A stretch of 55,409 bases of DNA from a virus (taxonomy: Duplodnaviria > Heunggongvirae > Uroviricota > Caudoviricetes), in the IMG/VR virus record IMGVR_UViG_2531839531_000009. One strand, written 5' to 3'. The notes beneath the pieces are model-generated. The model searched no databases. It saw only the letters and a program-made list of their open reading frames with translations, and was not told where the DNA came from. Positions 7,492-33,482 of this stretch are shown here, in pieces (positions within the stretch are counted from its first letter, which is position 1; each line of letters opens with the position of its first letter). The position numbers were made by a program, and so were the translations under genes.

Positions 7492-8034
7492 ATGAAATCG
7501 CACCTGATGAACAAAAAAACTATGGCGCAAAGCTGCCGCGTAAGTGCGACAGCGTTCGACAAGTGGGGAGTAACTCCCGTTGAGCGTAAAGGCCGTGAGG
7601 CGTTTTATGATGTTGCTAGCGTGATAGACAATAGGGTTAACAATGCAATTAACCAGCTTACAAACGACAAAGGCGAGATTGATGATGATGAACTTTTACG
7701 CGTAAGAATCAGATTGCTGACAGCACAGGCGGAAGCGCAGGAACTTAAAAACGAGCGCGAACGCGGCGAGGTGATTGATACAAAGTTTTGCATCTACGCG
7801 ATTTCAAAACTAGCGAGTCAGATTTCATCAATCATGGACAGCCTCCCGCTCACAATGCAAAGGCGCTTTCCCGATATAAGGCCGTATATGCTGGATGAAC
7901 TAAAAAGGGAAATAGCCAAAGCATGTAACGCATGTGCAAGACTTGACGAAAACCTGCCACAGATACTGGCTGATTACCTGATGGAAACTACCGGAAGCGC
8001 GCCTGAGAAGTTGCTACAGAACAAAGGCGAGTAA
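7492..8034 (+). CDS. terminase small subunit, lambda Nu1 family
   Basis: Conserved blocks shared with Nu1: LTAQAEAQELKNERERGEVIDTKFC, SIMDSLPLTMQRRFPD; start 7492 (GGGG 6 nt upstream) or 7507. Confidence 0.8.
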   Translation: MKSHLMNKKTMAQSCRVSATAFDKWGVTPVERKGREAFYDVASVIDNRVNNAINQLTNDKGEIDDDELLRVRIRLLTAQAEAQELKNERERGEVIDTKFCIYAISKLASQISSIMDSLPLTMQRRFPDIRPYMLDELKREIAKACNACARLDENLPQILADYLMETTGSAPEKLLQNKGE

Positions 8035-12313: not shown

Positions 12314-12435
12314 GCAGGTGAATGCAACGTCAAGCGATGGGCGTTGCGCTCCATATTGTCTTACTTCCTTTTTTGAATTACTGCATAGCACAATTGATTC
12401 GTACGACGCCGACTTTGATGAGTCGGCTTTTTTTT
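12314..12435 (+). ncRNA. fnrS: FnrS small RNA
   Basis: gcaggtgaatgcaacgtcaagcgatgggcgttgcgctccatattgtc... ending in hairpin gacgccgactttgatgagtcggc plus T8 matches my recollection of E. coli FnrS; between zntB and dbpA as in K-12. Confidence 0.7.
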
Positions 12436-12695: not shown

Positions 12696-14069
12696 GTGAC
12701 CGCTTTTTCTACCCTGAATGTTTTGCCTCCCGCCCAACTCACGAACCTTAATGAGTTGGGTTATTTAACCATGACGCCGGTGCAGGCCGCCGCGCTTCCG
12801 GCGATCCTTGCCGGAAAAGATGTTCGCGTGCAGGCGAAAACCGGCAGCGGCAAAACGGCGGCTTTTGGCCTCGGCTTGTTACAGCAAATTGATGCGTCGC
12901 TATTTCAAACCCAGGCTTTAGTGCTGTGTCCTACGCGTGAACTGGCGGATCAGGTGGCAGGTGAATTGCGTCGGCTGGCGCGTTTTCTGCCAAATACCAA
13001 AATTTTGACGTTGTGCGGTGGTCAACCGTTCGGTATGCAGCGTGATTCGTTGCAACATGCGCCGCATATTATCGTGGCAACGCCGGGTCGTTTGCTGGAT
13101 CACTTGCAAAAAGGCACGGTATCACTGGATGCGCTGAATACTTTGGTGATGGATGAGGCCGACCGCATGCTGGATATGGGATTTAGCGATGCCATTGATG
13201 ATGTCATCCGTTTTGCGCCTGCATCTCGACAGACGCTTCTGTTTTCGGCAACCTGGCCGGAAGCCATCGCCGCAATCAGCGGACGAGTGCAACGCGATCC
13301 TTTGGCGATTGAAATTGACTCAACAGATGCTTTGCCACCCATTGAACAACAATTTTATGAGACATCCAGTAAAGGCAAAATTCCTCTGTTGCAACGGTTA
13401 TTAAGTTTGCATCAGCCATCCTCTTGTGTGGTGTTTTGCAATACCAAAAAAGATTGCCAGGCTGTCTGCGACGCGCTGAATGAAGTAGGGCAAAGTGCAT
13501 TGTCGTTACACGGCGATCTGGAGCAACGCGATCGCGATCAGACCCTGGTACGTTTTGCTAACGGTAGCGCCCGTGTACTGGTTGCGACTGATGTTGCTGC
13601 GCGTGGTCTGGATATTAAATCGCTTGAGCTGGTGGTGAACTTTGAGCTGGCGTGGGACCCTGAAGTTCATGTACATCGCATCGGCCGTACAGCTCGTGCA
13701 GGAAATAGCGGTCTGGCGATCAGTTTCTGTGCTCCGGAAGAAGCACAGCGGGCCAATATCATTTCTGACATGTTGCAGATAAAACTTAACTGGCAAACGC
13801 CGCCAGCTAATAGTTCCATTTTGCCGCTGGAAGCAGAAATGGCAACGTTGTGTATCGATGGCGGGAAAAAAGCCAAAATGCGCCCGGGTGATGTATTAGG
13901 TGCGCTGACAGGAGACATCGGGCTTGATGGCGCAGATATTGGCAAAATCGCCGTGCATCCGGCGCATGTCTATGTCGCGGTGCGTCAGGCTGTTGCTCAT
14001 AAAGCATGGAAACAGTTACAGGGCGGGAAGATTAAAGGAAAAACGTGCCGGGTGCGGTTATTAAAATAA
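12696..14069 (+). CDS. dbpA: ATP-dependent RNA helicase DbpA (DEAD-box)
   Basis: 457 aa, GTG start; motifs AKTGSGKT, PTRELA, DEAD (VMDEADRML), SAT, HRIGRTAR. Confidence 0.9.
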   Translation: MTAFSTLNVLPPAQLTNLNELGYLTMTPVQAAALPAILAGKDVRVQAKTGSGKTAAFGLGLLQQIDASLFQTQALVLCPTRELADQVAGELRRLARFLPNTKILTLCGGQPFGMQRDSLQHAPHIIVATPGRLLDHLQKGTVSLDALNTLVMDEADRMLDMGFSDAIDDVIRFAPASRQTLLFSATWPEAIAAISGRVQRDPLAIEIDSTDALPPIEQQFYETSSKGKIPLLQRLLSLHQPSSCVVFCNTKKDCQAVCDALNEVGQSALSLHGDLEQRDRDQTLVRFANGSARVLVATDVAARGLDIKSLELVVNFELAWDPEVHVHRIGRTARAGNSGLAISFCAPEEAQRANIISDMLQIKLNWQTPPANSSILPLEAEMATLCIDGGKKAKMRPGDVLGALTGDIGLDGADIGKIAVHPAHVYVAVRQAVAHKAWKQLQGGKIKGKTCRVRLLK

Positions 14070-14116
14070 TGAAATGTTGAATTGCCGGGTGCAAGAGTAA
14101 ACATCTTATGCGGGAT

Positions 14117-14190
14117 TGCCGGATGCGACGCTGGCCGCGTCTTATCCGGCCTCCATAAGAGTAGCCCGATACGCTTGCGCATCGGGCGCT
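14117..14190. repeat. REP (repetitive extragenic palindrome) elements
   Basis: tgccggatgcgacgctggccgcgtcttatccggcct followed by gcccgatacgcttgcgcatcgggcgc, classic REP-type palindromes between convergent dbpA and ttcA. Confidence 0.5.
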
Positions 14191-14197
14191 ATCCTGG

Positions 14198-15133
14198 TTA
14201 TTTCACTTCAACCACATTCAGCCGTAACTCATCCAACTGATTTTCATCTTCTTCTGGCTGCCAGCCCGCCGGTTGTAGTGGGATCTCTTCGCGATCAAAC
14301 GCCAGATCACCCCCGTTAACCACTTCAGAACCGTGGGTAATGCCTTTGAAATCGAACAGGTTGGTATCGCACAGATGCGACGGCACCACATTCTGCATCG
14401 CGCTGAACATCGTCTCGATACGCCCTGGATAACGTTTATCCCAGTCACGCAACATGTCAGCAATCACCTGACGTTGCAGGTTAGGCTGTGAACCGCACAG
14501 GTTGCACGGAATAATCGGGAACGCTTTTGCATCGGCAAATCGCTGAATATCTTTCTCGCGGCAGTAGGCCAGCGGACGAATAACGATATGTTTGCCATCA
14601 TCGCTCATCAGTTTCGGAGGCATACCTTTCATCTTGCCGCCGTAGAACATATTTAAGAACAACGTTTGCAGGATATCGTCACGATGGTGACCCAACGCGA
14701 TCTTCGTCGCCCCCAGTTCCGTTGCGGTACGATAAAGGATACCGCGACGAAGGCGAGAACACAGTGAGCAAGTGGTTTTGCCCTCTGGAATCTTCTCTTT
14801 CACGATACCGTAAGTATTCTCTTCAACAATCTTGTACTCAACGCCCAGCTTTTCAAGATACTCGGGCAGAACGTGTTCCGGGAAGCCCGGTTGCTTTTGA
14901 TCGAGGTTAACAGCCACCAGCGAAAAATTGATTGGCGCGCTTTGCTGCAAATTGCGCAGAATCTCCAGCATGGTATAGCTGTCTTTACCCCCGGAGAGGC
15001 AAACCATGATGCGATCGCCTTCTTCAATCATATTGAAGTCAGCAATGGCTTCGCCCACGTTACGACGCAGACGTTTTTGTAATTTGTTCAGGTTGTATTG
15101 TGCTTTCTTTGTAATTTGTTGATTTTCTTGCAT
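14198..15133 (-). CDS. ttcA: tRNA 2-thiocytidine biosynthesis protein TtcA
   Basis: 311 aa; PP-loop SGGKDS and CxxC motifs ([16 protein letters not shown]). Confidence 0.9.
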
Positions 15134-15184
15134 TATTTCAGTTCTCTGGTACTAAATGGGGCATATTGAGGGCAAACTTTGCAA

Positions 15185-16420
15185 CTACGATAACCGTGCA
15201 TTCAACATGGCTACCTGTTCGTCGTTCATGTCATCAATCCACATACCGTAAATTTCATACACCATCTGCGCAGTTTCATGCCCCATTTGGCTGGCTATAA
15301 ATGCCGGGTTCGCTCCTGCCGTCAACAGCCAGCAGGCAAAAGTATGCCGCGTATGGTACGGATTACGGCGGCGAATACCAGCACGTTTTACTGCTGCATT
15401 CCACCTTGCCCCCAAACTGCTTACCGAGTAATAAGGTTTTTGTTTTCCGTTACACACCCTGGGCATGAAAACAAAATGCAGTTTTTGCTTTTCGGTTCTG
15501 CCGTACTCCCGATGATAAAAGGTGATTTCGCTTTTGCGATGATGCCCGGTCAGTTTGTATTGCTCCTTCAGTGCTTCAAGAGCAGGCTGCAGTAGTGTTA
15601 CTGTCCGGATCCCGGCATTTGTTTTTGGGGGACCGAACATATCAAGTATCGTCAGGTTTCTTCTGACATTCACTATTCCCTTTTCGAGATCCACATCCTC
15701 CCACGCCAGAGCTGCCAGTTCCCCGTGACGAAGTCCTGAGTAAACGGCAAATTTCCACAAGTTCTGGCTCTGTCCTTTTTCACTTTCCATTAATGCATTG
15801 AATTCTGTTTTAGATAACGGATCAGGCTTTATTCTGTTTCGCTGTAATTTTTTTACTCCTTCAAATGGTTTGGTTGATATAAATCCCGACTGATACGCAA
15901 AACGTAACAGCGAACAGAGCAGGGCGATATAGTTATCAACTGTGCGTACGGTTCTTCCTTTTTTGTTGGATCTTGGATTATCCAGGTAAAGCGTTTCTCC
16001 ATGCAGCAGTTCATTCCGGTAATTTAAGATATCGCTATAACGAATATGTGATATCGGGGTACTTTCACAAATTATTATTCTGAGTGTTTTTAATTGTGAT
16101 TTCGTTTTCTTCATTGTGTTTGTTGTTAACTCTGTTTCTTTAATTTTTGTCCAGATATCACAAAGCTCCCCGAACGTTTTTATGACTCTCGTTGTCACCA
16201 TTTTTGCCCCAGTGCTGGACTGGGGAAAACGTCTTAAATACTCAAATTCACCGGAGTTTATTTCATGAACTATCAGCGCTCTTAAATTTCCGGCCTTTTT
16301 AATATTACTGTTTGTAATCTCCCAGCCTTTTAATGTTTCCCGACATCGTTTTCCTCGAAACATGAACCAGATGCGAATGTATCTACCTCTAATCTCGACA
16401 CCTGTTGGTAATTTAGACAT
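15185..16420 (-). CDS. intR: tyrosine integrase, Rac-type
   Basis: 411 aa; C-terminal catalytic region with RHTFACWLL and HETAQMVYEIYGMW; adjacent to ttcA as in K-12 Rac. Confidence 0.85.
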   Translation of the reverse strand: MSKLPTGVEIRGRYIRIWFMFRGKRCRETLKGWEITNSNIKKAGNLRALIVHEINSGEFEYLRRFPQSSTGAKMVTTRVIKTFGELCDIWTKIKETELTTNTMKKTKSQLKTLRIIICESTPISHIRYSDILNYRNELLHGETLYLDNPRSNKKGRTVRTVDNYIALLCSLLRFAYQSGFISTKPFEGVKKLQRNRIKPDPLSKTEFNALMESEKGQSQNLWKFAVYSGLRHGELAALAWEDVDLEKGIVNVRRNLTILDMFGPPKTNAGIRTVTLLQPALEALKEQYKLTGHHRKSEITFYHREYGRTEKQKLHFVFMPRVCNGKQKPYYSVSSLGARWNAAVKRAGIRRRNPYHTRHTFACWLLTAGANPAFIASQMGHETAQMVYEIYGMWIDDMNDEQVAMLNARLS

Positions 16421-16421
16421 A

Positions 16422-16637
16422 TCATGATTCTTTGATAAACTGATTTATCTTTGGATAGTTGTACCAGATAATTCCTCGTTTGCTGTCTGGCTTACCTAAA
16501 GGAGATACTCGTTTGAAGTGGAAGCCCTCCACCCAACAGTTCTGGCGGTATGCTTCAATTTGTCTGACCCCCAGACCAGTGCGAAGCATCAGGCCGTATT
16601 CAACCATCCACTCTTCATTAAAGATTACTTGTGCCAT
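16422..16637 (-). CDS. xisR: excisionase-like protein
   Basis: Small ORF immediately upstream of int on the same strand; AGGTGA SD before the internal ATG; start uncertain. Confidence 0.55.
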
Positions 16638-16736
16638 CGCATCACCTCTGGCAGGCGCCAATGTTAGACTGAAATTGACGCCCGATGTTGATTATTAATA
16701 ATCAGCTATGAAGTTTTAATTTGAATACAATGCAAC

Positions 16737-16937
16737 TCACGAGGACTGAAGTTTCTCGCAATTGAAATTAATCAGTTTTACTTTCTGCTCTCTGGAAACT
16801 CCTGCTTCTTTTTTACCTGAGAGCATTTTTTCGCATTCTGATTTCGTTAGTTTAGATTTTGAATATCTTGTCCAGTTAGTAGGAGTGCCACCTTCCTTTT
16901 CAATAGTGGCGGTAATTTTATACATGAACATCTCCAT
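16737..16937 (-). CDS. ydaC: YdaC-like small protein
   Basis: ORF between xis and ralR; start uncertain (ATGs at 16937, 16931, 16925) because the longest frame overlaps ralR. Confidence 0.45.
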   Translation of the reverse strand: MEMFMYKITATIEKEGGTPTNWTRYSKSKLTKSECEKMLSGKKEAGVSREQKVKLINFNCEKLQSS

Positions 16938-17112
16938 TATTATTTCCAGTGGTTCGTTTATTCCATCTTTCGAGTGCTTCTTTTTCACTTCCACCATAAC
17001 CGGTTCGGGATTCGCATGCGTTACACTTCGCTCGGTAATATCCTGAAATGGCTTTCACCGTTACTGATGGACAACCACAAAATGGACATGGTTTGACTTT
17101 TTCATACCGCAT
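16918..17112 (-). CDS. ralR: restriction alleviation protein RalR (Lar)
   Basis: MRYEKVKPCPFCGCPSVTVKAISGYYRAKCNACESRTGYGGSEKEALERWNKRTTG matches Lar as recalled. Confidence 0.65.
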   Translation of the reverse strand: MRYEKVKPCPFCGCPSVTVKAISGYYRAKCNACESRTGYGGSEKEALERWNKRTTGNNNGDVHV

Positions 17113-17175
17113 TGTCTTTTCTCTCATATAATAAAATTTTGTGATGGCGGTGAGGCTACACCGCCAAAGTCAATA

Positions 17176-18279
17176 TTAGGATCCGATATATTCTGGTTTC
17201 ATATCTGTCAGTGTCGTTTTATACGCCTCATATAATTCACCCAGATGTGGTCGAGCAGCATTCAGCGTATTTTCCAGAGCAGTAAATTTTTGTTCTGCTT
17301 CTGGATCACCTGATGAAGGCAGGTCATTTATCATCTTCTCGATACTGGCAATAGCATTGAGACGGTGATGACGCCGAACCACTTTTCCTTTAAGCTCGGC
17401 AAAGAATTCGCCGATCTGGTTTTTCTGATCCTCTATCTCTTGGCGTAATGCAGTGGTTTCCTCAGTCGTGGCCGCGCTTTCGACACGCTGCCGGAATTCA
17501 TCAATCCACGCTTCGTCAATACGCTGTTCGATGGTTTCTGTTCGCTGCTCGCTTACCTCTCTATAATTCTGTACCGGCACAGGATTGATGATTTTTTCCT
17601 GTGGCTCTTCCAGTTCGTCCGGGGTATACACGCCCAGGATGACGTCAGGACAATAAAGGCGAGCCCAGTATTTCAACGCCAGATAGGCGAGCTGTTGTTT
17701 CGGGTTTGAGGTCCATAAAGGAGAATTACGCGTAATCACGCTGGAAAGAAACACCGGTTCTCCCCAGGTAATCTCACTTTCACCGCGAAGAACTGCACCA
17801 ACTCGAACGGATAGACCATACTCATCTTCACTGGTCCAACATGGGATCGTTTCTTTTTTCTCATAGATTCCGCCTCCTTTGGCCGTTTTCTTAACGGTCT
17901 CCACTCGGGCGCGAGAGCATTTCTCCCAGTCTCCCTCGTACTTGTAATGGAAGCGGCCTACAATTGCACTTGAGCTAGAGATCACAGCGTTAACAAGTTG
18001 TGCTTCATAACCCAGAACTCCGTTTACCAGGTGTGTTTTCTGAGCCACAGCGTAGGGGTTCATGCCCCATTGCATGGCTTGCATGATGATTGCCATGCAG
18101 TCGGCAGGTTTTCCGCGAAGGTGATCGGGAACTGTGACGGTGGCCTGTGACATCAACCCGGCTACTTCCTGAAGTTGCGTCAACGCCTGAACGTTAAAAA
18201 TAGTGTTACTGGCAGAAATGGTATTTGGTGTCTGCTCTGTCGTGATGATATTGGTATTTTGCATGGTCAGGTTCTCCAT
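17176..18279 (-). CDS. single-strand annealing recombinase, RecT/Red-beta family, with long C-terminal extension
   Basis: 367 aa; core resembles RecT/Bet (QWGMNPY...GVLGYEAQLVN...NPKQQLAYLALKYWARLY) but differs from K-12 RecT as recalled; about 100 extra C-terminal residues. Confidence 0.6.
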   Translation of the reverse strand: MENLTMQNTNIITTEQTPNTISASNTIFNVQALTQLQEVAGLMSQATVTVPDHLRGKPADCMAIIMQAMQWGMNPYAVAQKTHLVNGVLGYEAQLVNAVISSSSAIVGRFHYKYEGDWEKCSRARVETVKKTAKGGGIYEKKETIPCWTSEDEYGLSVRVGAVLRGESEITWGEPVFLSSVITRNSPLWTSNPKQQLAYLALKYWARLYCPDVILGVYTPDELEEPQEKIINPVPVQNYREVSEQRTETIEQRIDEAWIDEFRQRVESAATTEETTALRQEIEDQKNQIGEFFAELKGKVVRRHHRLNAIASIEKMINDLPSSGDPEAEQKFTALENTLNAARPHLGELYEAYKTTLTDMKPEYIGS

Positions 18280-21200
18280 TAAGCCAGATGCAGTGCTTCA
18301 AGACGACGAAGATCAAAGTCGTTTAATTCGTCGGTATAACTTTCGGTAATCGGTGCTGGCCAGTTGTTTGTCTCTAGGGCTTCGTTTATCTGGCGTAGCG
18401 TCCGGCGATATTCCTGTCGACCAAGTTCCAGGAGTTCCTGCGAGGCTTCCACGACTGCCACCCAGTGATAGCCAACATCTTTGTTGACGAAGATCCAGAA
18501 AAATTTGTCCAGGTTTGCCACATCACAATACATTGCGGCGCTGAGGTGATAATCACGCTCAATAATTTCACGGTGCAGGCGATCTTTAAGTCGTTCCTGC
18601 CGCACATAACCGAGGCTGACTGACTTCACGTCAGCGCAAATGCTTTCGTATGGCAGCCGGATTTCGATATCAGGACGGACCCTGATTTCCAGCCCGGTTT
18701 CTTCATCAAACCCGAAATAGCTGATTTCAGATTTGCGATCCGGGTGGTTGAGTAGCCTTGCTGTATCGGTATTGTTTTGCAGTGCCGCGTGAATATTTTT
18801 TGCCTGTTCATACATATCCGCACTGATAAACGTTTTCCCGGCGTTTTCTTCTTGCTGTCGTTTTTGCCAGTCCTCCAGTGTCACCAGTTCCGGGCGAATT
18901 TTCCGTGCGATTTCGGTTAATTGCTCTTTTGTGCCACTGATGTTGTAAGGCAACGATTTAGCACGTTCTTTTTTTGCCAGTTCTGGATCTACAGTTTCAA
19001 TTTGCTCCAGAAGCTGCTCCCGTGTTCCACTGGTTTTCAGCAGAGGAGGGAGGCTTGCGTTGTATTCTTTAATACAGGCTTTCATTGCTGATGCTGTGTG
19101 TTTTTCCCCCTCAGGAATACGCCGAAATTCCTCCGGAAGCGAACCGTAAAGGATGCCTGTTTCTTCGGTCCCAGCGCTTACCGACAGAGGCTGTATAAGA
19201 GTGCTGTTGTAGCTTTCGATCCACTCTTTCATCTGCTCTGGTGTCATCAGTGATGGCAGACTGGCATTGTATTTTTTAATGATGGTGATCAGTTCGTTAG
19301 AAGTAGTAACCACATATTCAGGAACCGGTACCGGAATGGCATATTCATCAGCGAATTTATCCGTTTCCAGAACGTAGCTGTGAATGATCCGCCCACGCAG
19401 CAATGCATCACTTTCCTCGTTCGGAATAGTCCCGGCAATGTGCCGCCCGTGGTAATACATCAGACTGATGCGGGCATCCTTCAGCATTGTGCTGCTTATT
19501 CCGTTGGCGGAGTGATAAACCTCGTTCGGGAGGTTTTCATAGCGGCCAGGCTCGAAATATGACGGCCACATGATTTCAGTTGCTACATTAGCTGACGCTT
19601 CACCAGTTTCATCACTGCAATCGTGATGCGGATGGTTGCCAGCATTCTCCTTGTGTGGATGTTCAGCGCTTTCCATTTCCTCCGGATCATTTTCCTGAAC
19701 TTCAACCTGATTCTCTTCATCGAATGTTTCCTGGTATGTTGCGTCGCCCATCACCGCACCACAATCAGGGCAGTTGCCGCCGTCGGTCTGACCGCAGGCG
19801 GCGCAGGCTTTTTCCGGCTCCTGTTGCGTTATTGGCTCGGATTGTTTCGTTTCTGGCTCGTTTTGTTGCGCATTTCGGCTGTTTTGTTCCGCTTTCTGGT
19901 CGTTCTGTTCCGTTTCTTGCTGGTTCTGATTCACTGAATCGCGGGTTTCAATCCCCTTCACCCATTTCGGATCGTTCGGGTCGCTAATTCCGTCAACAAA
20001 TTCACCACGTGATGCTGCAAGTAATTTATCGGCATCGACAGGATTTTTTGATGGAATGTTTTTCCGGGCTTCATGGAGTTCTGCCCGCAGTTCCTGATAT
20101 TTCGCATCAACAGAATTTACCTGTGACTGAGCATCCAGCGGCTGCGTGTCCTGATGATGTTCAGTTGCATTCGGTTCCACTGTTTCAGCCGTTGCCTGTT
20201 CATCTGCCATTGCGCCAGATGGTTGTGGCTTTTCTTCATCGTCCTGTTTTCCTTCTTCTGTCACACGCTGCGGCATCGGGGCAGAGGAGCGACCGCAGGC
20301 AATATCCACGATTTCCGGATCAGGGTTGGCATGATCAGTTTCAGTCAGTACTTTGTTCAGATATTCAGTGACGTGCGCGGGGATGACCTCGATCCCAATT
20401 GGTGCTTCTTTCACGGACGCAACCACGGTGGCGCGGGAATAATCCAGCCCGCCAGGCATGGTGATGAATTTGTCGCGGAAAACAGAAAAGGGCGGTTTAT
20501 TTTCAGCGATAATTTCCTCAATGCGTTTAGCGTGTGCCGGATGAAGGTTATAGATGTCCACGTCCATTGAACGGGCCAGTACGCCAGTGGCTACATCGCG
20601 TGCCAGTGACGTCAGATCGTGGACGAAACCTTCGCCGCGATCGGTGAGGTTCCCGCCGCCAGCATTAGCACCGGAAGCCGTGCGAGTGATGCGTGAAACA
20701 CGATTCCCTTTCCTCCATTCTTTTGTCAGAAGACCACGATCAATGTGTTCGGTATCCAGCCAGGCTGAAATGAAATTCTTAAATTCATAGGGCTGATGTT
20801 TTTTCGTGATAGAGAAAACTGCCTTAATTGCATCAGTCAGGCGGAGCAGGGCGGCATTATCCAGAGTTGTCGGTTCTGCCATGCCGCGTATGGCCAACAG
20901 CAGATTCTGGACATAGCTGTTTTCCTGGCCCATCTCAAGAGCAGTAATGTGTTCGCGTTGTTCACGGGTGGCATGATGCAGGTATTTCCGATCCCCGGCC
21001 GCATATGTAAAAATGTGCAGAAGACGCTGTGTGAACCGCAAAGTGGCTACAGAAACTTCGCAATCCTGGCAATCCCCGTGGGCGTCTGCCTGCGCGTTTT
21101 CTTCCTGGCCTCCCGCCAGTTCTTTGGTTTCCTGGGTATTCTCCTGATGGTGAACGTCGTCTGGTGCTGCACCCGGTTTTAGTTCCCAGGTGATGGAGTC

Positions 21201-21446
21201 CTTGCCGAGTTGATAGCGTTCACACCACGTAAAATCGATCTCACCTTCAGGGGGAAGGTCATTAACGACAGGAAAATTAGTTGCAACAGTTTTAAAATAG
21301 TTGCTCAGTTTTTTACCTGACTTAACGATCAGGTAGTCCAGAGTGGCACTGGTCGATTCAAAATCGTCGCTTGCCCACAGGACGACGTCAGGTTCACCGG
21401 ATGATTTTTTCGCTTTCCGTAAAAGGAAGAGTGGTTTTGTGCTCAT
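18279..21446 (-). CDS. recE: exodeoxyribonuclease VIII (RecE family), 1055 aa
   Basis: N-terminal ~450 aa match K-12 RecE as recalled ([26 protein letters not shown]..., [25 protein letters not shown]); acidic Q/E/N-rich region; C-terminal region diverges and holds internal repeats. Confidence 0.8.
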
Positions 21447-21545
21447 TGTTTTTTAACCTCAACTCAGATTAAAATTACTGCGAGTGATGAATAAATGTCC
21501 CAGGTTCTTCACTCAGGCCTGCACACTGTGCAGGCTTTCTTTTTT

Positions 21546-21821
21546 TCAGATTTCACCGTTTAATTTCATTGCGATCAGAGTTGCCAGAAATCCAGCTTTT
21601 TTTTCTGCGGGCAGATTCTTTCCGATGTGAACCAGGCACATTTTTGTGACACCTTCATCAAGTGTTTTAACGTTGCCTGATGGACCGTCGATATCAACCA
21701 CAGTGAAAGGGGTTTCTTTATTTTCTGTTTTAATCACGTAGCCAATGCGCTTTCCTTCCAGATTCACCTCGTGAACAATGTCATCGGTAGTTACAACAGT
21801 GGCTTCATAATTGGTAATCAT
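21546..21821 (-). CDS. racC: RacC-like protein
   Basis: 91 aa from the internal ATG with AGGAG SD; position upstream of recE as in Rac. Confidence 0.5.
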   Translation of the reverse strand: MITNYEATVVTTDDIVHEVNLEGKRIGYVIKTENKETPFTVVDIDGPSGNVKTLDEGVTKMCLVHIGKNLPAEKKAGFLATLIAMKLNGEI

Positions 21822-21895
21822 GTTTTTCTCCTTAATTAAGGTTGAGCGAATCTCTACCATTTCTGGCATAAATTCAGTTTCGAATAGTCAATTAA

Positions 21896-22065
21896 TTAAA
21901 GTTCGTGTGCCATCTGGTCTTTTTCGGCACAGATTTCACTACAATATTTTTTCATTTCCGTCGTTGGTATAACTCCACGCATGAAATGAAGTGGTCTTGT
22001 AATGATTTTGCTTTCTTCAATTTCTTTATTGCAAAGGTGATAAGCACATTTTATTTTCTTAGTCA
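21896..22065 (-). CDS. ydaE: YdaE-like zinc-ribbon protein (56 aa)
   Basis: Minus-strand ORF below the ORF-track size cutoff: [56 protein letters not shown] with two Cys pairs; its start abuts the kilR stop. Confidence 0.5.
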
Positions 22066-22287
22066 TTACCATGACTCCGCCTTTACAGGTAAACCATCAC
22101 GACCGAGGAAGACTTTAATCATGCAGTCAGAAATGCATGTTTTTGTAGTCAGGCTACGAATATAAAGTTTTCGCTTTTTAATATTGTTTGCCGAGGCGAT
22201 ATATGTCCGACCTTCATGAAGAACATAATCGCCAGGGGTCACACACTGACGTGGTATTTCATCAGTTCCGAAGTGATGAGCAATCAT
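22066..22287 (-). CDS. kilR: KilR, prophage FtsZ inhibitor
   Basis: [73 protein letters not shown] matches KilR as recalled. Confidence 0.7.
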
Positions 22288-22695
22288 AATTATCTCCATT
22301 TTTACAAATGAATTTTGTCGATGCGGTGCCTGGTGCCTCCAGGTGACGTTAACCAGTTAACAATTAACGCCGGATAATCCACCCATAACACTGATGCTTT
22401 TAACTGCGCCGCGTGCGCTTAGCCGCATTCACCGCATCACAAAATTCACTTTAAAAAGGGGCGGCAGGGCAGCTACGGAGTAGAACTGATGCCGCCAAAA
22501 ACTAGACACAGCAATGTCGTTATTTACAACCGGAGGCGCACTCCCACCATTTAAATTTAACAGACAAGACCGACTCTTTATGGATACCGGAAATGCGCCT
22601 TCGTATTGTGCCCGGTTTTATTTCACCACCTCCGGGCTTTGGTGGCCTCGGCTATACCCCTACAGCAAGAATATTGAATTAATCCAATAAATGGT

Positions 22696-23153: not shown

Positions 23154-23573
23154 TTACTCCGGTGGGGGATTATCTTTAAGCCTGCCTCTCAAATATTTTT
23201 CTACATACTCATCGATTTCTTTTAGCCGGACTTCAAATAGCTCAATCATTCGTTGTTGTTCTGAGCCCGGTAGCTGGTTAAACAACTCAAGAAGTTTTCG
23301 TTGGGATTCATTTAACCACAATTCAGAAGATTCCTGTTCTCCAAAGAGGAGCTCAGGAGGAGATATGCCAAGTGCCTTTCCCAATACGACAGCGTCATGC
23401 ACTCCAACATTTCTGCTGCCCGCCTCATAGTTACCTATACGCGATTGCGTCCATCCGCAGATTTCAGCAAGTTTTCCTTGAGATAAACCAAGCTTCTGCC
23501 TGCGCTCTTTAAGACGCATTGCAATTTTGTCATTGAGCCTACTAGCGGCAATTTTTTCGTTTTCTTTTTCCAT
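23154..23573 (-). CDS. racR: XRE/cI-type HTH repressor, RacR-like
   Basis: 139 aa with HTH (LGLSQGKLAEICGWTQSRIGNYEAGSR); divergent from the ydaS-like gene. Confidence 0.7.
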   Translation of the reverse strand: MEKENEKIAASRLNDKIAMRLKERRQKLGLSQGKLAEICGWTQSRIGNYEAGSRNVGVHDAVVLGKALGISPPELLFGEQESSELWLNESQRKLLELFNQLPGSEQQRMIELFEVRLKEIDEYVEKYLRGRLKDNPPPE

Positions 23574-23669
23574 TGCATCCTTGTATCACGAATCGTGATT
23601 TACATAAAACACAAAACAGCTTGACCATATAACACAAGATGTGTTTAAAATTGTCATCGGAGGTTTTCA
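23574..23669. promoter_or_regulatory. divergent promoter/operator region between racR and ydaS
   Basis: Perfect 15-bp palindrome ATCACGAATCGTGAT (23585..23599) and inverted repeat AACACAagaTGTGTT (23631..23645). Confidence 0.5.
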
Positions 23670-23912
23670 ATGAACAAAATTTCAACATATCGAAAACAGC
23701 TTGGGCTGTCTCAAAGACAACTTGCTGTTCAGTTAGGGTGGATACAAAGCCGACTGGCAAATTACGAAGCAAATTTTCGTACCCCTGGACTAGAGGAGTG
23801 CAGAAAAATTGTTTCTACCCTTAATCGGCTTGGCGCTCATTGTGGACTTGACGATGTATTCCCCCCAGACGGTAAGCATAGCGAAAACAGCATAGGAGCG
23901 GTTGATTCATGA
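23670..23912 (+). CDS. ydaS: Cro/YdaS-like HTH protein
   Basis: 80 aa with HTH (LGLSQRQLAVQLGWIQSRLANYEAN), transcribed divergently from racR. Confidence 0.65.
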   Translation: MNKISTYRKQLGLSQRQLAVQLGWIQSRLANYEANFRTPGLEECRKIVSTLNRLGAHCGLDDVFPPDGKHSENSIGAVDS

Positions 23913-24331
23913 AAATCAGGCATGAGCACATCGAATCAGTGTTGTTAGCCCTGGCAGCCGAAAAAGGGCAGGCGTGGGTCGCTAACGCAATTACTGAAGA
24001 ATATCTGCGCCAGGGGGGCGGCGAATTGCCCCTTGTACCAGGCAAGGACTGGAACAATCAGCAGAATATCTATCACCGTTGGTTGAAAGGTGAAACGAAA
24101 GCGCAAAGGGAAAAAATTCAGAAACTGATTCCTGCGGTTCTGGCAATTCTTCCGCGCGAGCTGCGTCACCGACTCTGCATCTTCGATACCCTGGAACGCC
24201 GTGCATTACTGGCGGCGCAGGAAGCGTTGAGTACGGTAATTGATGCGCATGATGATGCAGTTCAGGCCGTTTACCGGAAAGCACATTTCAGCGGTGGTGG
24301 TTCGTCCGGCGATTCTGTTGTTGTTCATTAA
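23909..24331 (+). CDS. ydaT: YdaT-like protein
   Basis: 140-aa ORF coupled to ydaS (overlapping stop/start); position as ydaT in Rac. Confidence 0.6.
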   Translation: MKIRHEHIESVLLALAAEKGQAWVANAITEEYLRQGGGELPLVPGKDWNNQQNIYHRWLKGETKAQREKIQKLIPAVLAILPRELRHRLCIFDTLERRALLAAQEALSTVIDAHDDAVQAVYRKAHFSGGGSSGDSVVVH

Positions 24332-24337
24332 GGTGAT

Positions 24338-28638: not shown

Positions 28639-29211
28639 ATGAGAGACATTGATGTAAGAAAGGCTGTGCATGCCAAGATTCTGAGAGATCATCATAAAGA
28701 TCCTGACACCCTAATCATTGATGAGTTTACGATGAATCTAGGGGCTAGCAGAGCTGATATAGCAGTGATCAATGGGCTTATACATGGTTATGAGTTGAAG
28801 AGCAAGAGTGATAACTTGCTCAGATTACCAGCGCAGGTGCAACATTACTCATCAGTGATGGATAAAGTAACGTTGGTTGTCTCTGATTGCCATCTTTATG
28901 ATGCTTTAAGCATAGTTCCATCATGGTGGGGGATAAAGCAAGTTACGCAAGGTGCACGGCAAGGTATCCATTTAAAAACAATTCGAACTAGCAAGTTGAA
29001 TCCACAAGTGGACAAACTTTCCTTAACAATGCTTCTTTGGAAAGATGAATTGCTTTCCCTATTAAGTGATGTAGGGGAGCTACAGAATTTGAAAAATAAA
29101 CCTAAACGCGTCTTATGGTCAAAACTCGCCAATAGTATGGATGTTGGCGAGCTTCGTGAAGCTGTTCGAGTTAAACTTAAAGCCCGTAAAGAGTGGCGAG
29201 TTGCTCAATAA
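28639..29211 (+). CDS. PD-(D/E)xK nuclease-like protein (resembles proteins I recall annotated as sce7726 family)
   Basis: 190 aa; LIIDEF...RADIAVINGLIHGYELKSKSDN fits a PD-(D/E)xK D...D...E-x-K pattern; AT-rich coding sequence; 3' end overlaps the convergent partner by 35 bp. Confidence 0.6.
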   Translation: MRDIDVRKAVHAKILRDHHKDPDTLIIDEFTMNLGASRADIAVINGLIHGYELKSKSDNLLRLPAQVQHYSSVMDKVTLVVSDCHLYDALSIVPSWWGIKQVTQGARQGIHLKTIRTSKLNPQVDKLSLTMLLWKDELLSLLSDVGELQNLKNKPKRVLWSKLANSMDVGELREAVRVKLKARKEWRVAQ

Positions 29212-30274
29212 CCTTAGTTATGTGATGGTTTTGCCCAATCCTACGCCATACCTCTGGGCTACCAAATTTATAGTTACCAGAGGGATTGGCTTTGTAGGCT
29301 TGATACTCGTTTGCATAATATTCTATGTCTCTATCTCCCGCACAGAATGTAGGCCCTGAATATTCTCGATGAGCAAGAATATCCTCACTATGTTTACCAT
29401 ATTGTTCATAACCAAAGCGATTAGCTACTCTTCCTCGAAATACCCAAAAGTCATTATCTCCAGAGTATCTGACGCTGGCAGATACGCTAGGGAATCGCGT
29501 CGAAAGCCTATTAAAGTCGGGGTGCTGTACTCCATAATCACTATAAATCACATTTCTGGCAAGTTCTTTTCTATTCATTAAACTCTGCCATAAAATCCAC
29601 TCGATTCGAGGTTGAGAATATAGACCAACAGAAATATCACTGAGATCTGTAGGAAATGAACCCCCAGAAATAATCACTTTCCTGTATTCATTGAGGTGCG
29701 CCAGATTGTTTATCAATCCCATTGCCAAAGTATATAGTTCGCCGGAATTAAGTTTATCCTCGGTTAACTCATCTCTTAAGTCAATAATTATATCAAAATT
29801 TGATAAAGGAATTCCCAGATGATTAATGTAATGCGTTATTAATTGTGGGTTAACCAGATCTAACGTAGTTAATCTCAAGCATATTTCATTCTGCATTAAT
29901 TCATCAATCGCTCTTTTATAGTTAGATGGGCGAGTTGGTGAACTGACAGGAATAACTCTTATTCCCATATCTCTAACTTGATTAACCGCATTCATTATAG
30001 GGTAATGATCTTCAGGAGAAATAAAATGCTCTTCAATTAATAATCCATCAATATAAACACCTTGCATATCTGAGCAAGATTTTGAGACTTTCTTTCCGAA
30101 CTCTATAAGAGTCTCGTTATAACTCTTTAAGGCAATACCTGAATCAGGGTCAATTGGCACTGGTTCAATTTCGAGTAATGGCAAAATTTTTGATTTCTTT
30201 TCAATGGATAGCTGCGATAAAGCTGATAACTCAGAACGTTTCGCTTTCAGAATAGGAATATATGAAATTGTCAT
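29177..30274 (-). CDS. hypothetical 365-aa protein (resembles proteins I recall annotated as sce7725/beta family)
   Basis: Long AT-rich ORF convergent with the nuclease-like gene; no motif identifiable by eye. Confidence 0.6.
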   Translation of the reverse strand: MTISYIPILKAKRSELSALSQLSIEKKSKILPLLEIEPVPIDPDSGIALKSYNETLIEFGKKVSKSCSDMQGVYIDGLLIEEHFISPEDHYPIMNAVNQVRDMGIRVIPVSSPTRPSNYKRAIDELMQNEICLRLTTLDLVNPQLITHYINHLGIPLSNFDIIIDLRDELTEDKLNSGELYTLAMGLINNLAHLNEYRKVIISGGSFPTDLSDISVGLYSQPRIEWILWQSLMNRKELARNVIYSDYGVQHPDFNRLSTRFPSVSASVRYSGDNDFWVFRGRVANRFGYEQYGKHSEDILAHREYSGPTFCAGDRDIEYYANEYQAYKANPSGNYKFGSPEVWRRIGQNHHITKVIEQLATLYGL

Positions 30275-30830
30275 GTTAATACCTTATACAGAATCAATTA
30301 ACAATTAATGGTTCTTCGGACATTGAAATTTATATCGCAAAAATTGGCAAACTCTCCTCGACTACTCACTTGTGGGTATCCTGGCGTAAAAGGAATGACT
30401 TGGCAATACCCGGTGTGATCATAAGTCATTGAAAATGATCATTTTTATCAGCCTTTCTTCCATGATGAATGCTAATGCCATTTGATTTGTTGAGGTGAAA
30501 ACTATTAAAAATCAAAACGATGTAATTGAAATGAACGTTCGGTAGCATTCACGCTTTAAATGTTTCTTTTGTGCTGATTGGATGAATTTTGGTCACTTAT
30601 GATGAGAGATGTTGCAGGAAAAGAAGTTGGCATTGATCTATTGGATAGTTAGAATTGCTGCGGGTGCTTGAGGCTATCTGCCTCAGGCATGAACACCAAA
30701 AGGCAGATAGAGAAAAGCCCCAGTTAACATTACGCGTCCTGCAAGACGTTTAACATTAATCTGAGGCCATATCTATGCGACACATAGAGATTAGCCTCTT
30801 ACGGACCGAAAGGTCAAGGAGAAGCAGGCT

Positions 30831-30986
30831 ATGAAGCAGCAAAAGGCGATGCTAATCGCCCTGATCGTCATCTGTTTAACCGTCATAGTGACGGCACTGG
30901 TAACGAGGAAAGACCTCTGCGAGGTACGAATCCGAACCGGCCAGACGGAGGTCGCTGTCTTCACAGCTTACGAACCTGAGGAGTAA
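30831..30986 (+). CDS. hokD: Hok/Gef-family type I toxin (HokD/RelF-like, 51 aa)
   Basis: Unlisted short ORF: MKQQKAMLIALIVICLTVIVTALVTRKDLCEVRIRTGQTEVAVFTAYEPEE; preceded by a short overlapping mok-like frame and followed by hairpins. Confidence 0.75.
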   Translation: MKQQKAMLIALIVICLTVIVTALVTRKDLCEVRIRTGQTEVAVFTAYEPEE

Positions 30987-33328: not shown

Positions 33329-33404
<76 letters not shown>

Positions 33405-33407
33405 TAT

Positions 33408-33482
<75 letters not shown>

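Follow-up and report, generated by a model that had tools for sequence, protein, structure and literature searches.

A Rac-type prophage recE carrying a Gifsy-type nuclease domain, with the matching recT beside it

The recE-like and recT-like genes described here lie in IMG/VR virus record IMGVR_UViG_2531839531_000009, a Caudoviricetes sequence of 55,409 nucleotides, the whole of which we call the window. Two open reading frames (ORFs) were confirmed on its minus strand, 18279..21446(-) with 1055 aa and 17176..18279(-) with 367 aa, the longest recT ORF starting at 18279 with an overlap of 1 nt with the recE stop. RecT probably starts at M6 (nt 18264, giving 362 aa), as this codon has a GGAG sequence 8 nt upstream, homologues start with MQNTN or MENTN, and the start called by the NCBI annotation pipeline (PGAP) is identical. 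One flank of the pair holds ttcA (14198-15133), intR (15185-16420), xisR and ralR; the opposite flank holds homologues of racC, ydaE and kilR and the immunity region. In the early-left operon of this Rac-type prophage, whose integration site is ttcA, the recE-recT pair is the module for homologous recombination, combining a 5'->3' dsDNA exonuclease with a single-strand annealing protein. The pair is mosaic: the first 616 codons of recE are of the type found in the Rac prophage of Escherichia coli K-12, and from an acidic linker onward they are followed by a nuclease domain, and then by a recT, of the type found in Gifsy-1 and Gifsy-2. The two genes are:

18279..21446, minus strand: recE-like gene, mosaic exodeoxyribonuclease VIII, 1055 aa (ORF, Pfam, NCBIfam)
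17176..18264, minus strand: recT-like gene, 362 aa from the likely start M6 (ORF, Pfam RecT, PHROG 561)

We compared the K-12 Rac region with the window at the protein level (BLASTP and windowed identity) and at the DNA level (blastn). The window pair and K-12 Rac RecE/RecT (b1350/b1349; PDB 3H4R) have in common the prophage type, the integration site, the gene order and the operon, and also RecE aa 1-~100 and 237-616 (~90% identity or more), the Pfam families and the catalytic H/D/D/K residues; they differ in that the window nuclease is only 28% identical, carries a 156-aa insertion and is paired with a dissimilar RecT that has an extension of ~140 aa. Along RecE, identity to K-12 is 90-95% over aa 1-~100, 18-55% over aa ~105-236, and mostly 82-100% over aa 237-616, with a dip (50-72%) at aa ~481-560 around an insertion of 14 aa; beyond aa 616 it falls to ~28%. 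The DNA follows the same pattern: 19598-20741 and 21135-22670 are ~89.5% identical to K-12 and 13001-17166 is 98.4% identical, while 17167-19597 and 20742-21134 have no K-12 blastn match, both being flanked by matching DNA. The segments thus defined are:

19599..21446, minus strand: K-12-like RecE N-terminal region, aa 1-616 (BLASTP, windowed identity, DNA ~89.5% identical)
20742..21134, minus strand: second divergent patch within the RecE N-terminal region, aa ~105-236 (blastn, 18-55% aa identity)
17167..19597, minus strand: segment exchanged relative to K-12 Rac, comprising the nuclease domain and all of recT (in place of K-12 L001:5978-7631)

An earlier interpretation made from the letters and ORF translations of the window (the sequence-only reading) had held that the N-terminal ~450 aa of RecE match K-12 and that the C-terminal region differs. 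The K-12-like start and the divergent C-terminal region are both borne out; the real limit of the similarity, however, is aa 616, and the stretch treated as uniformly K-12-like contains the overlooked patch at aa ~105-236. Pairwise alignment with K-12, the check which that reading had named, showed that the two proteins are not near-identical to K-12 RecE and RecT over their full length (28% past aa 616 of RecE, and a RecT without BLASTP similarity).

Both breakpoints of the exchanged segment are sharp. The first falls after RecE E616, which corresponds to K-12 E585 in the acidic linker preceding the nuclease domain, and the second lies 10 nt beyond the recT stop, where K-12-like DNA resumes. 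Residues 588-866 of K-12 RecE are what we take to be its minimal recombination-proficient fragment. The nuclease domain of K-12 RecE has been placed at aa 564-866 (PMC11611040). With either definition, the junction is at a domain boundary.

Family models describe the N-terminal and full-length protein consistently: Pfam Exonuc_VIII (PF06630) matches RecE aa 2-182 (E 9.7e-65), PHROG 607 (exonuclease VIII) matches over the full length, and the NCBIfam RecE equivalog NF007259 is passed with 1346.7 bits (cut-off 1269), most of them contributed by the K-12-like aa 1-616. The RecE alleles of O145 and FDAARGOS_946 differ across all of aa 1-240; together with the second patch in the window, this indicates a recE assembled from four or more exchangeable segments. 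A conserved C-x2-C-x8-C-x2-C knuckle at RecE aa 548-562 (19761-19805), present also at aa 517-531 of K-12 RecE and without a Pfam match, may be a zinc-binding element.

The sequence-only reading had suggested a domain search of the RecE C-terminus, and this search identified a nuclease: Pfam DUF3799, a PD-(D/E)XK family, matches aa 867-1031 (E 2.6e-13), and the domain matches PDB 3H4R (E 4.6e-6). Its catalytic H/D/D/K residues are intact, and its ratio of nonsynonymous to synonymous substitution rates (dN/dS) is 0.05-0.23. A Foldseek search of the full C-terminal domain model against the PDB returned only 3H4R (E 0.012) and was set aside, the core of the model being too poor.

18282..19598, minus strand: Gifsy-type PD-(D/E)XK nuclease domain, aa 617-1055 (28% identical to K-12, 52% to Gifsy-1/2 RecE)
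19380..19382, minus strand: His689, equivalent to K-12 RecE His652 (nearly invariant column H70, alignment A1)
18624..18671, minus strand: catalytic motif D926...D939-V-K941, equivalent to K-12 D748, D759 and K761 (invariant columns of A1, K-12 included)

The nuclease domain is interrupted by an insertion of 156 aa, which in the alignment with K-12 falls inside loop 665-698 of K-12 RecE, a disordered loop at the rim of the channel; such loops project from the rim in K-12 RecE, presumably to capture double-stranded DNA (dsDNA) (PMC11611040). An AlphaFold2 (AF2) model of aa 700-885 (mean local confidence, pLDDT, 91.5; predicted template-modelling score, pTM, 0.68) is all-helical and consists of four units, each a helix, an extended loop and a second helix. 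Local alignment scores between the units are far above those of shuffled sequences (U1-U3 z=10.4, U3-U4 z=7.1, U2-U3 z=5.5; 0 of 2000 shuffles as high). Three related segments had been recognized earlier; they are indeed significantly related (z = 7-10), but the units number four, U2 having been overlooked between the first two.

18843..19310, minus strand: 156-aa all-helical insertion inside the nuclease domain, aa 713-868 (alignment gap against K-12, AF2)
19200..19301, minus strand: repeat unit U1, aa 716-749, helix-LPSLMT-helix (shuffle test, AF2)
19143..19241, minus strand: repeat unit U2, aa 736-768, with a helix in common with U1 (shuffle test, AF2)
18990..19094, minus strand: repeat unit U3, aa 785-819 (shuffle test, AF2)
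18897..18986, minus strand: repeat unit U4, aa 821-850 (shuffle test, AF2)

Homologues with as little as 20-30% identity retain the insertion, among them stand-alone nucleases of ~430 aa; 63 of the 73 homologues have it at a length of 156 aa, and its dN/dS is 0.09-0.25. Insertions of other lengths (58, 105 and 207 aa) occur at loci L083, L085, L072 and L075 and at one more locus; they look like losses or gains of helix-loop-helix units of ~50 aa, and these homologues would amount to natural deletion mutants for the role of the insertion. Pfam SAP (PF02037) scores above threshold in the equivalent insertion of homologue P0375 (27.5 bits against 23.9) and below threshold in homologue P0286. A profile of U3 matched the WH2 motif of N-WASP over 11 residues only, a short-motif coincidence that neither supports nor tests a relationship with SAP.

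The adjacent annealase is a RecT by family, and is remote from that of K-12. Pfam RecT (PF03837) matches aa 41-227 of the window protein (E 1.2e-36, 126.5 bits against a cut-off of 24) and also matches K-12 RecT (E 9.7e-56), and PHROG 561 (RecT-like annealase) covers the full length of the window protein (E 1.5e-152). BLASTP found no similarity between the two RecTs; NCBIfam NF007351 and TIGR00616, which give K-12 RecT 464.5 and 415.7 bits, have no match to the window RecT at E <= 0.001; an hhalign comparison of the RecT alignment, which is shallow, with K-12 RecT was not significant; and searches of PDB sequences with the window RecT, alone and as a profile, gave no matches. The earlier statement that the core is unlike K-12 RecT therefore stands as far as BLASTP similarity goes, whereas the tail then put at ~100 aa is longer: ~140 aa past the Pfam domain, made up of a linker and a conserved domain of ~105 aa ending in DMKPEY, against 25 aa in K-12.

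17599..18159, minus strand: RecT annealase core, PF03837, aa 41-227 in 367-aa numbering (Pfam; highly conserved among Gifsy-type RecTs)
17503..17598, minus strand: variable RecT linker, aa 228-259 (alignment A4)
17179..17502, minus strand: RecT C-terminal domain (CTD), aa 260-367, without a K-12 RecT counterpart (dN/dS 0-0.23)

The swapped-in cassette is of the known Gifsy-1/Gifsy-2 type, which is widespread in Enterobacterales. With RecE of Gifsy-1, Gifsy-2, SPN3UB, mEp237 and HK225 the nuclease domain shares 51-52% identity, and RecT is ~61% identical to the Gifsy RecT, which is often mislabelled 'enterohemolysin'. The window shares with this group the nuclease subtype, the four-unit insertion, the RecT subtype, the CTD and the adjacency of the two genes, and the features diagnostic of membership are all present (alignments A1, A3 and A4): the ~156-aa insertion with its YNxxLP and SGT+xxL motifs, and next to it a RecT whose CTD reads ...ELKxK..HHRLNAIA...DMKPEY. 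The difference from Gifsy lies in the N-terminal two thirds of RecE, which in the window are of K-12 Rac type, whereas the Gifsy N-terminal region is homologous and much more divergent. Relative to Gifsy, the window allele forms a sub-branch of its own, and its nearest relatives outside E. coli are 71-84% identical.

Alleles that show no difference of substance from the window have been sequenced before: E. coli 214-4 (NZ_CP025840) has 99.9% DNA identity over the whole 4.3 kb and is annotated with recE and a RecT family recombinase, and the complete genome of phage Rac-SA53 (KU052037), annotated with recE and recT, has 97.5% aa identity in the nuclease domain. No functional or structural description of the Rac-SA53 or 214-4 recE-recT turned up in the literature that could be searched. 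In a set of 5426 complete E. coli genomes, 196 have the exchanged segment of the window type and 1751 that of the K-12 type; the conserved recE middle is present in 4119 of the genomes, at 7949 places in all. This middle is thus a common body that carries several alternative 3' cassettes, and K-12 is one allele among several.

Our scan for homologues, limited to one genome per species, gave 80 loci. In 77 of these, the ORF immediately downstream is a recT. Nearly all 80 loci come from named Enterobacterales, and the few labelled otherwise are metagenome-assembled genomes or suspect records. PP818812.1, recorded as 'Actinobacillus phage vB_Apl-pPE4', has a nuclease domain 97.9% identical to that of the window, and contigs labelled Sphingomonas and Streptomyces (L037, L076) carry Enterobacterales-type recET; host misattribution or assembly contamination is the likely source of these three labels.

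Across 73 nuclease/RecT pairs, similarity in the nuclease domain goes with similarity in the RecT CTD (Spearman 0.59, Mantel p 2e-4) and much less with similarity in the RecT core (Spearman 0.23). The partial correlation of nuclease with CTD, given the core, is 0.57 (p 5e-4), and that of nuclease with core, given the CTD, is -0.08. On the DNA, the RecT core is located between the nuclease domain and the CTD; that the segment in between does not co-vary is the opposite of what simple linkage predicts. Individual alleles display the same behaviour: those of O145 (RM9872) and FDAARGOS_946 are 95-100% identical in the nuclease and 97-100% identical in the last ~65 aa of RecT, and only 17-50% identical over RecT aa 1-180; and the RecT of L037, beside this nuclease type, joins a K-12-like core (31% identity, E 4e-27) to this CTD (30%, E 2e-12). 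L038, L040 and L078 probably have the same fusion as L037, given that they match it in ORF length and in their weak score. Exchange thus operates on units smaller than the gene pair: in other alleles the RecT core has been swapped alone, and the CTD stays with its nuclease type.

Phage lambda Exo/Red-beta is the same kind of two-component exonuclease-annealase system, and the CTD of Red-beta is a model for that of RecT, although the core and CTD of Red-beta have no detectable sequence similarity to the window RecT, and lambda Exo, a single-domain trimer, lacks the N-terminal region and the insertion of the window RecE. The CTD of Red-beta docks on lambda Exo, as has been shown structurally, and it also binds SSB. 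By analogy, the RecT CTD is most likely an adaptor that docks RecT on its cognate nuclease. Whether RecT binds its exonuclease through a C-terminal domain is listed as an unknown in a 2023 review (PMC11611040), and a 2026 paper that sorts RecT C-termini into classes, an extended helical bundle among them, predicts that RecT and RecE touch close to the C-terminus (PMC13490951).

Our preferred explanation, to which we assign a probability of about 0.8, is that a mosaic Rac-type RecE has received a Gifsy-type nuclease together with the Gifsy-type RecT, that the nuclease domain and the RecT CTD form one co-adapted unit, which is why they would travel together, that the CTD serves as the adaptor, and that the insertion captures DNA. 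The exonuclease-annealase module swap proposed by the sequence-only reading is supported, the nuclease domain and recT having been replaced jointly relative to K-12 between sharp breakpoints. Homology to RecE/RecT and lambda Exo/Red-beta suggests a mechanism in which the 5' strand of a double-strand end would be resected by the nuclease, and RecT would receive the 3' tail and anneal it to complementary single-stranded DNA. The four SAP-like helix-loop-helix units, in the place of the disordered rim loop of K-12, would hold the duplex at the mouth of the channel. There is good support for the insertion being a tandem array of helix-loop-helix units at the rim that faces the DNA, and its role is most likely the capture or holding of duplex DNA there; SAP homology of the units is unproven. 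Purifying selection acts on all four parts: compared with 4-5 relatives, the nuclease core and the insertion as well as the core and CTD of RecT have dN/dS values of 0.05-0.29 wherever dS is estimable.

Several observations weigh against this explanation. The distances used for the co-variation are identity-times-coverage values and hence crude, and the 73 nuclease/RecT pairs are phylogenetically related. The co-variation of CTD and nuclease could in part come from shared ancestry of the flanking DNA. The CTD tracks the insertion and the nuclease core equally (0.59 each), and partial Mantel tests on these pairs do not distinguish the two as its contact site (partials 0.19 and 0.18). As for the insertion, the best SAP match of the window's own units is SAP_new25 with E 0.05-0.07, below the Pfam threshold, and the U3 profile found no SAP chain among PDB sequences. 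Finally, AF2 models the nuclease core poorly, with pLDDT ~30 over aa ~905-1000.

The equal tracking of insertion and nuclease core, with both partials weakly positive, also suits a different role for the helical insertion, as a docking platform for the RecT CTD or host SSB, or as an oligomerisation element, without DNA binding. K-12 RecE without the insertion is accompanied by K-12 RecT without the CTD, so that both extras appear jointly, and in the sequence of the window itself the match to SAP is weak. We nevertheless regard this role as unlikely: the insertion occupies the position of the rim loops, which are believed to meet dsDNA as it enters (PMC11611040), one unit of P0375 passes the Pfam SAP threshold, and L083 and L085, with insertions of only 58 or 105 aa, still adjoin RecT ORFs that match the window RecT with E 2e-127 or better and have CTD scores (41) resembling those of full-length Gifsy-type loci.

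The joint replacement could be neutral mosaicism, in which neighbours between recombination-prone flanks are exchanged together and any RecT works with any RecE nuclease. Lambdoid prophages recombine extensively, and the breakpoints lie in conserved flanks, the recE middle found at 7949 places on one side and ralR on the other. This explanation appears distinctly improbable to us in view of the RecT core, which sits between nuclease and CTD on the DNA and yet does not co-vary with the nuclease, and of the partner specificity of K-12 RecE/RecT versus lambda Exo/Beta, experimentally established according to the citation of Muyrers 2000 in PMC11611040. That recE and recT are decaying remnants of a cryptic prophage that make no working proteins, as might be thought from K-12 Rac, which is cryptic and whose recET is silent unless activated (sbcA mutants), is hardly credible given intact ORFs, conserved catalytic residues, dN/dS well below 1 in all estimable segments, the same genes in the complete phage genome record Rac-SA53 and a prophage that reaches more than 40 kb past attL.

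The preferred explanation, with its co-adapted nuclease and CTD, can be carried one step further, although at this point we are speculating: partner specificity itself might reside in an exchangeable pair, consisting of a nuclease with a SAP-like, DNA-end-capturing array derived from the rim loop and of a RecT CTD that can be grafted onto unrelated cores. If so, a different annealase could be re-paired with this nuclease simply by grafting the CTD onto it.

As to the wider locus, a consensus scan for sigma-70-like promoters found none on the minus strand from the immunity region to recT, which is consistent with expression from the early-left operon. Gifsy recE and recT are listed among the early-left-operon genes, and recE-lacZ fusions respond to prophage induction by being switched on (PMC3121763). 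No attR, which would repeat the 3' end of ttcA, came up in a direct-repeat search of the window from 15084 to 55409; the prophage hence extends more than 40 kb past attL and beyond the window end, in contrast to K-12 Rac, a 23-kb remnant.

The immunity region (23154-23912) differs from K-12 racR/ydaS: an HTH_3 repressor-like ORF, 23154-23573(-), faces a small ORF, 23670-23912(+), which PGAP annotates as a helix-turn-helix (HTH) transcriptional regulator in strain 214-4, and K-12-like DNA returns at ydaT (23903-24332). A low-GC island (0.39-0.41) at 28639-30274 in the prophage holds a convergent gene pair encoding a 190-aa sce7726-like protein (PADLOC 'cll', E 2.4e-28) and a 365-aa Beta_protein (PF14350, E 2e-52; PADLOC PD-Lambda-2_C, E 1.5e-41); the pair may be a partial anti-phage defence cassette. 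Rfam matches at gathering score are:

16741-16919, plus strand: RalA antitoxin small RNA, opposite ralR
22459-22510, minus strand: DicF-like RNA in the early-left operon
30662-30833, plus strand: sok antitoxin, beside hok
33329-33479, plus strand: two prophage tRNAs
12314-12431, plus strand: FnrS, in the flanking chromosome

The module swap is real; it is also ordinary prophage mosaicism, and the cassette has already been sequenced and annotated many times, so that current understanding is not overturned by these findings. What we add is modest: the four-unit insertion at the rim-loop position and the co-variation of nuclease and CTD, with a testable prediction of partner specificity. In E. 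coli prophages, the name 'recE' is applied to two or more different nuclease/annealase cassettes, only 28% identical in the nuclease and undetectably related in the annealase, on one N-terminal body, and the NCBIfam equivalog name conceals this difference. The breakpoints define where the domains can be swapped. For recombineering, the Gifsy-type pair would be a natural and widespread alternative to K-12 RecET in the same hosts. More generally, the co-variation provides comparative support for binding of the exonuclease by the C-terminal domain of RecT.

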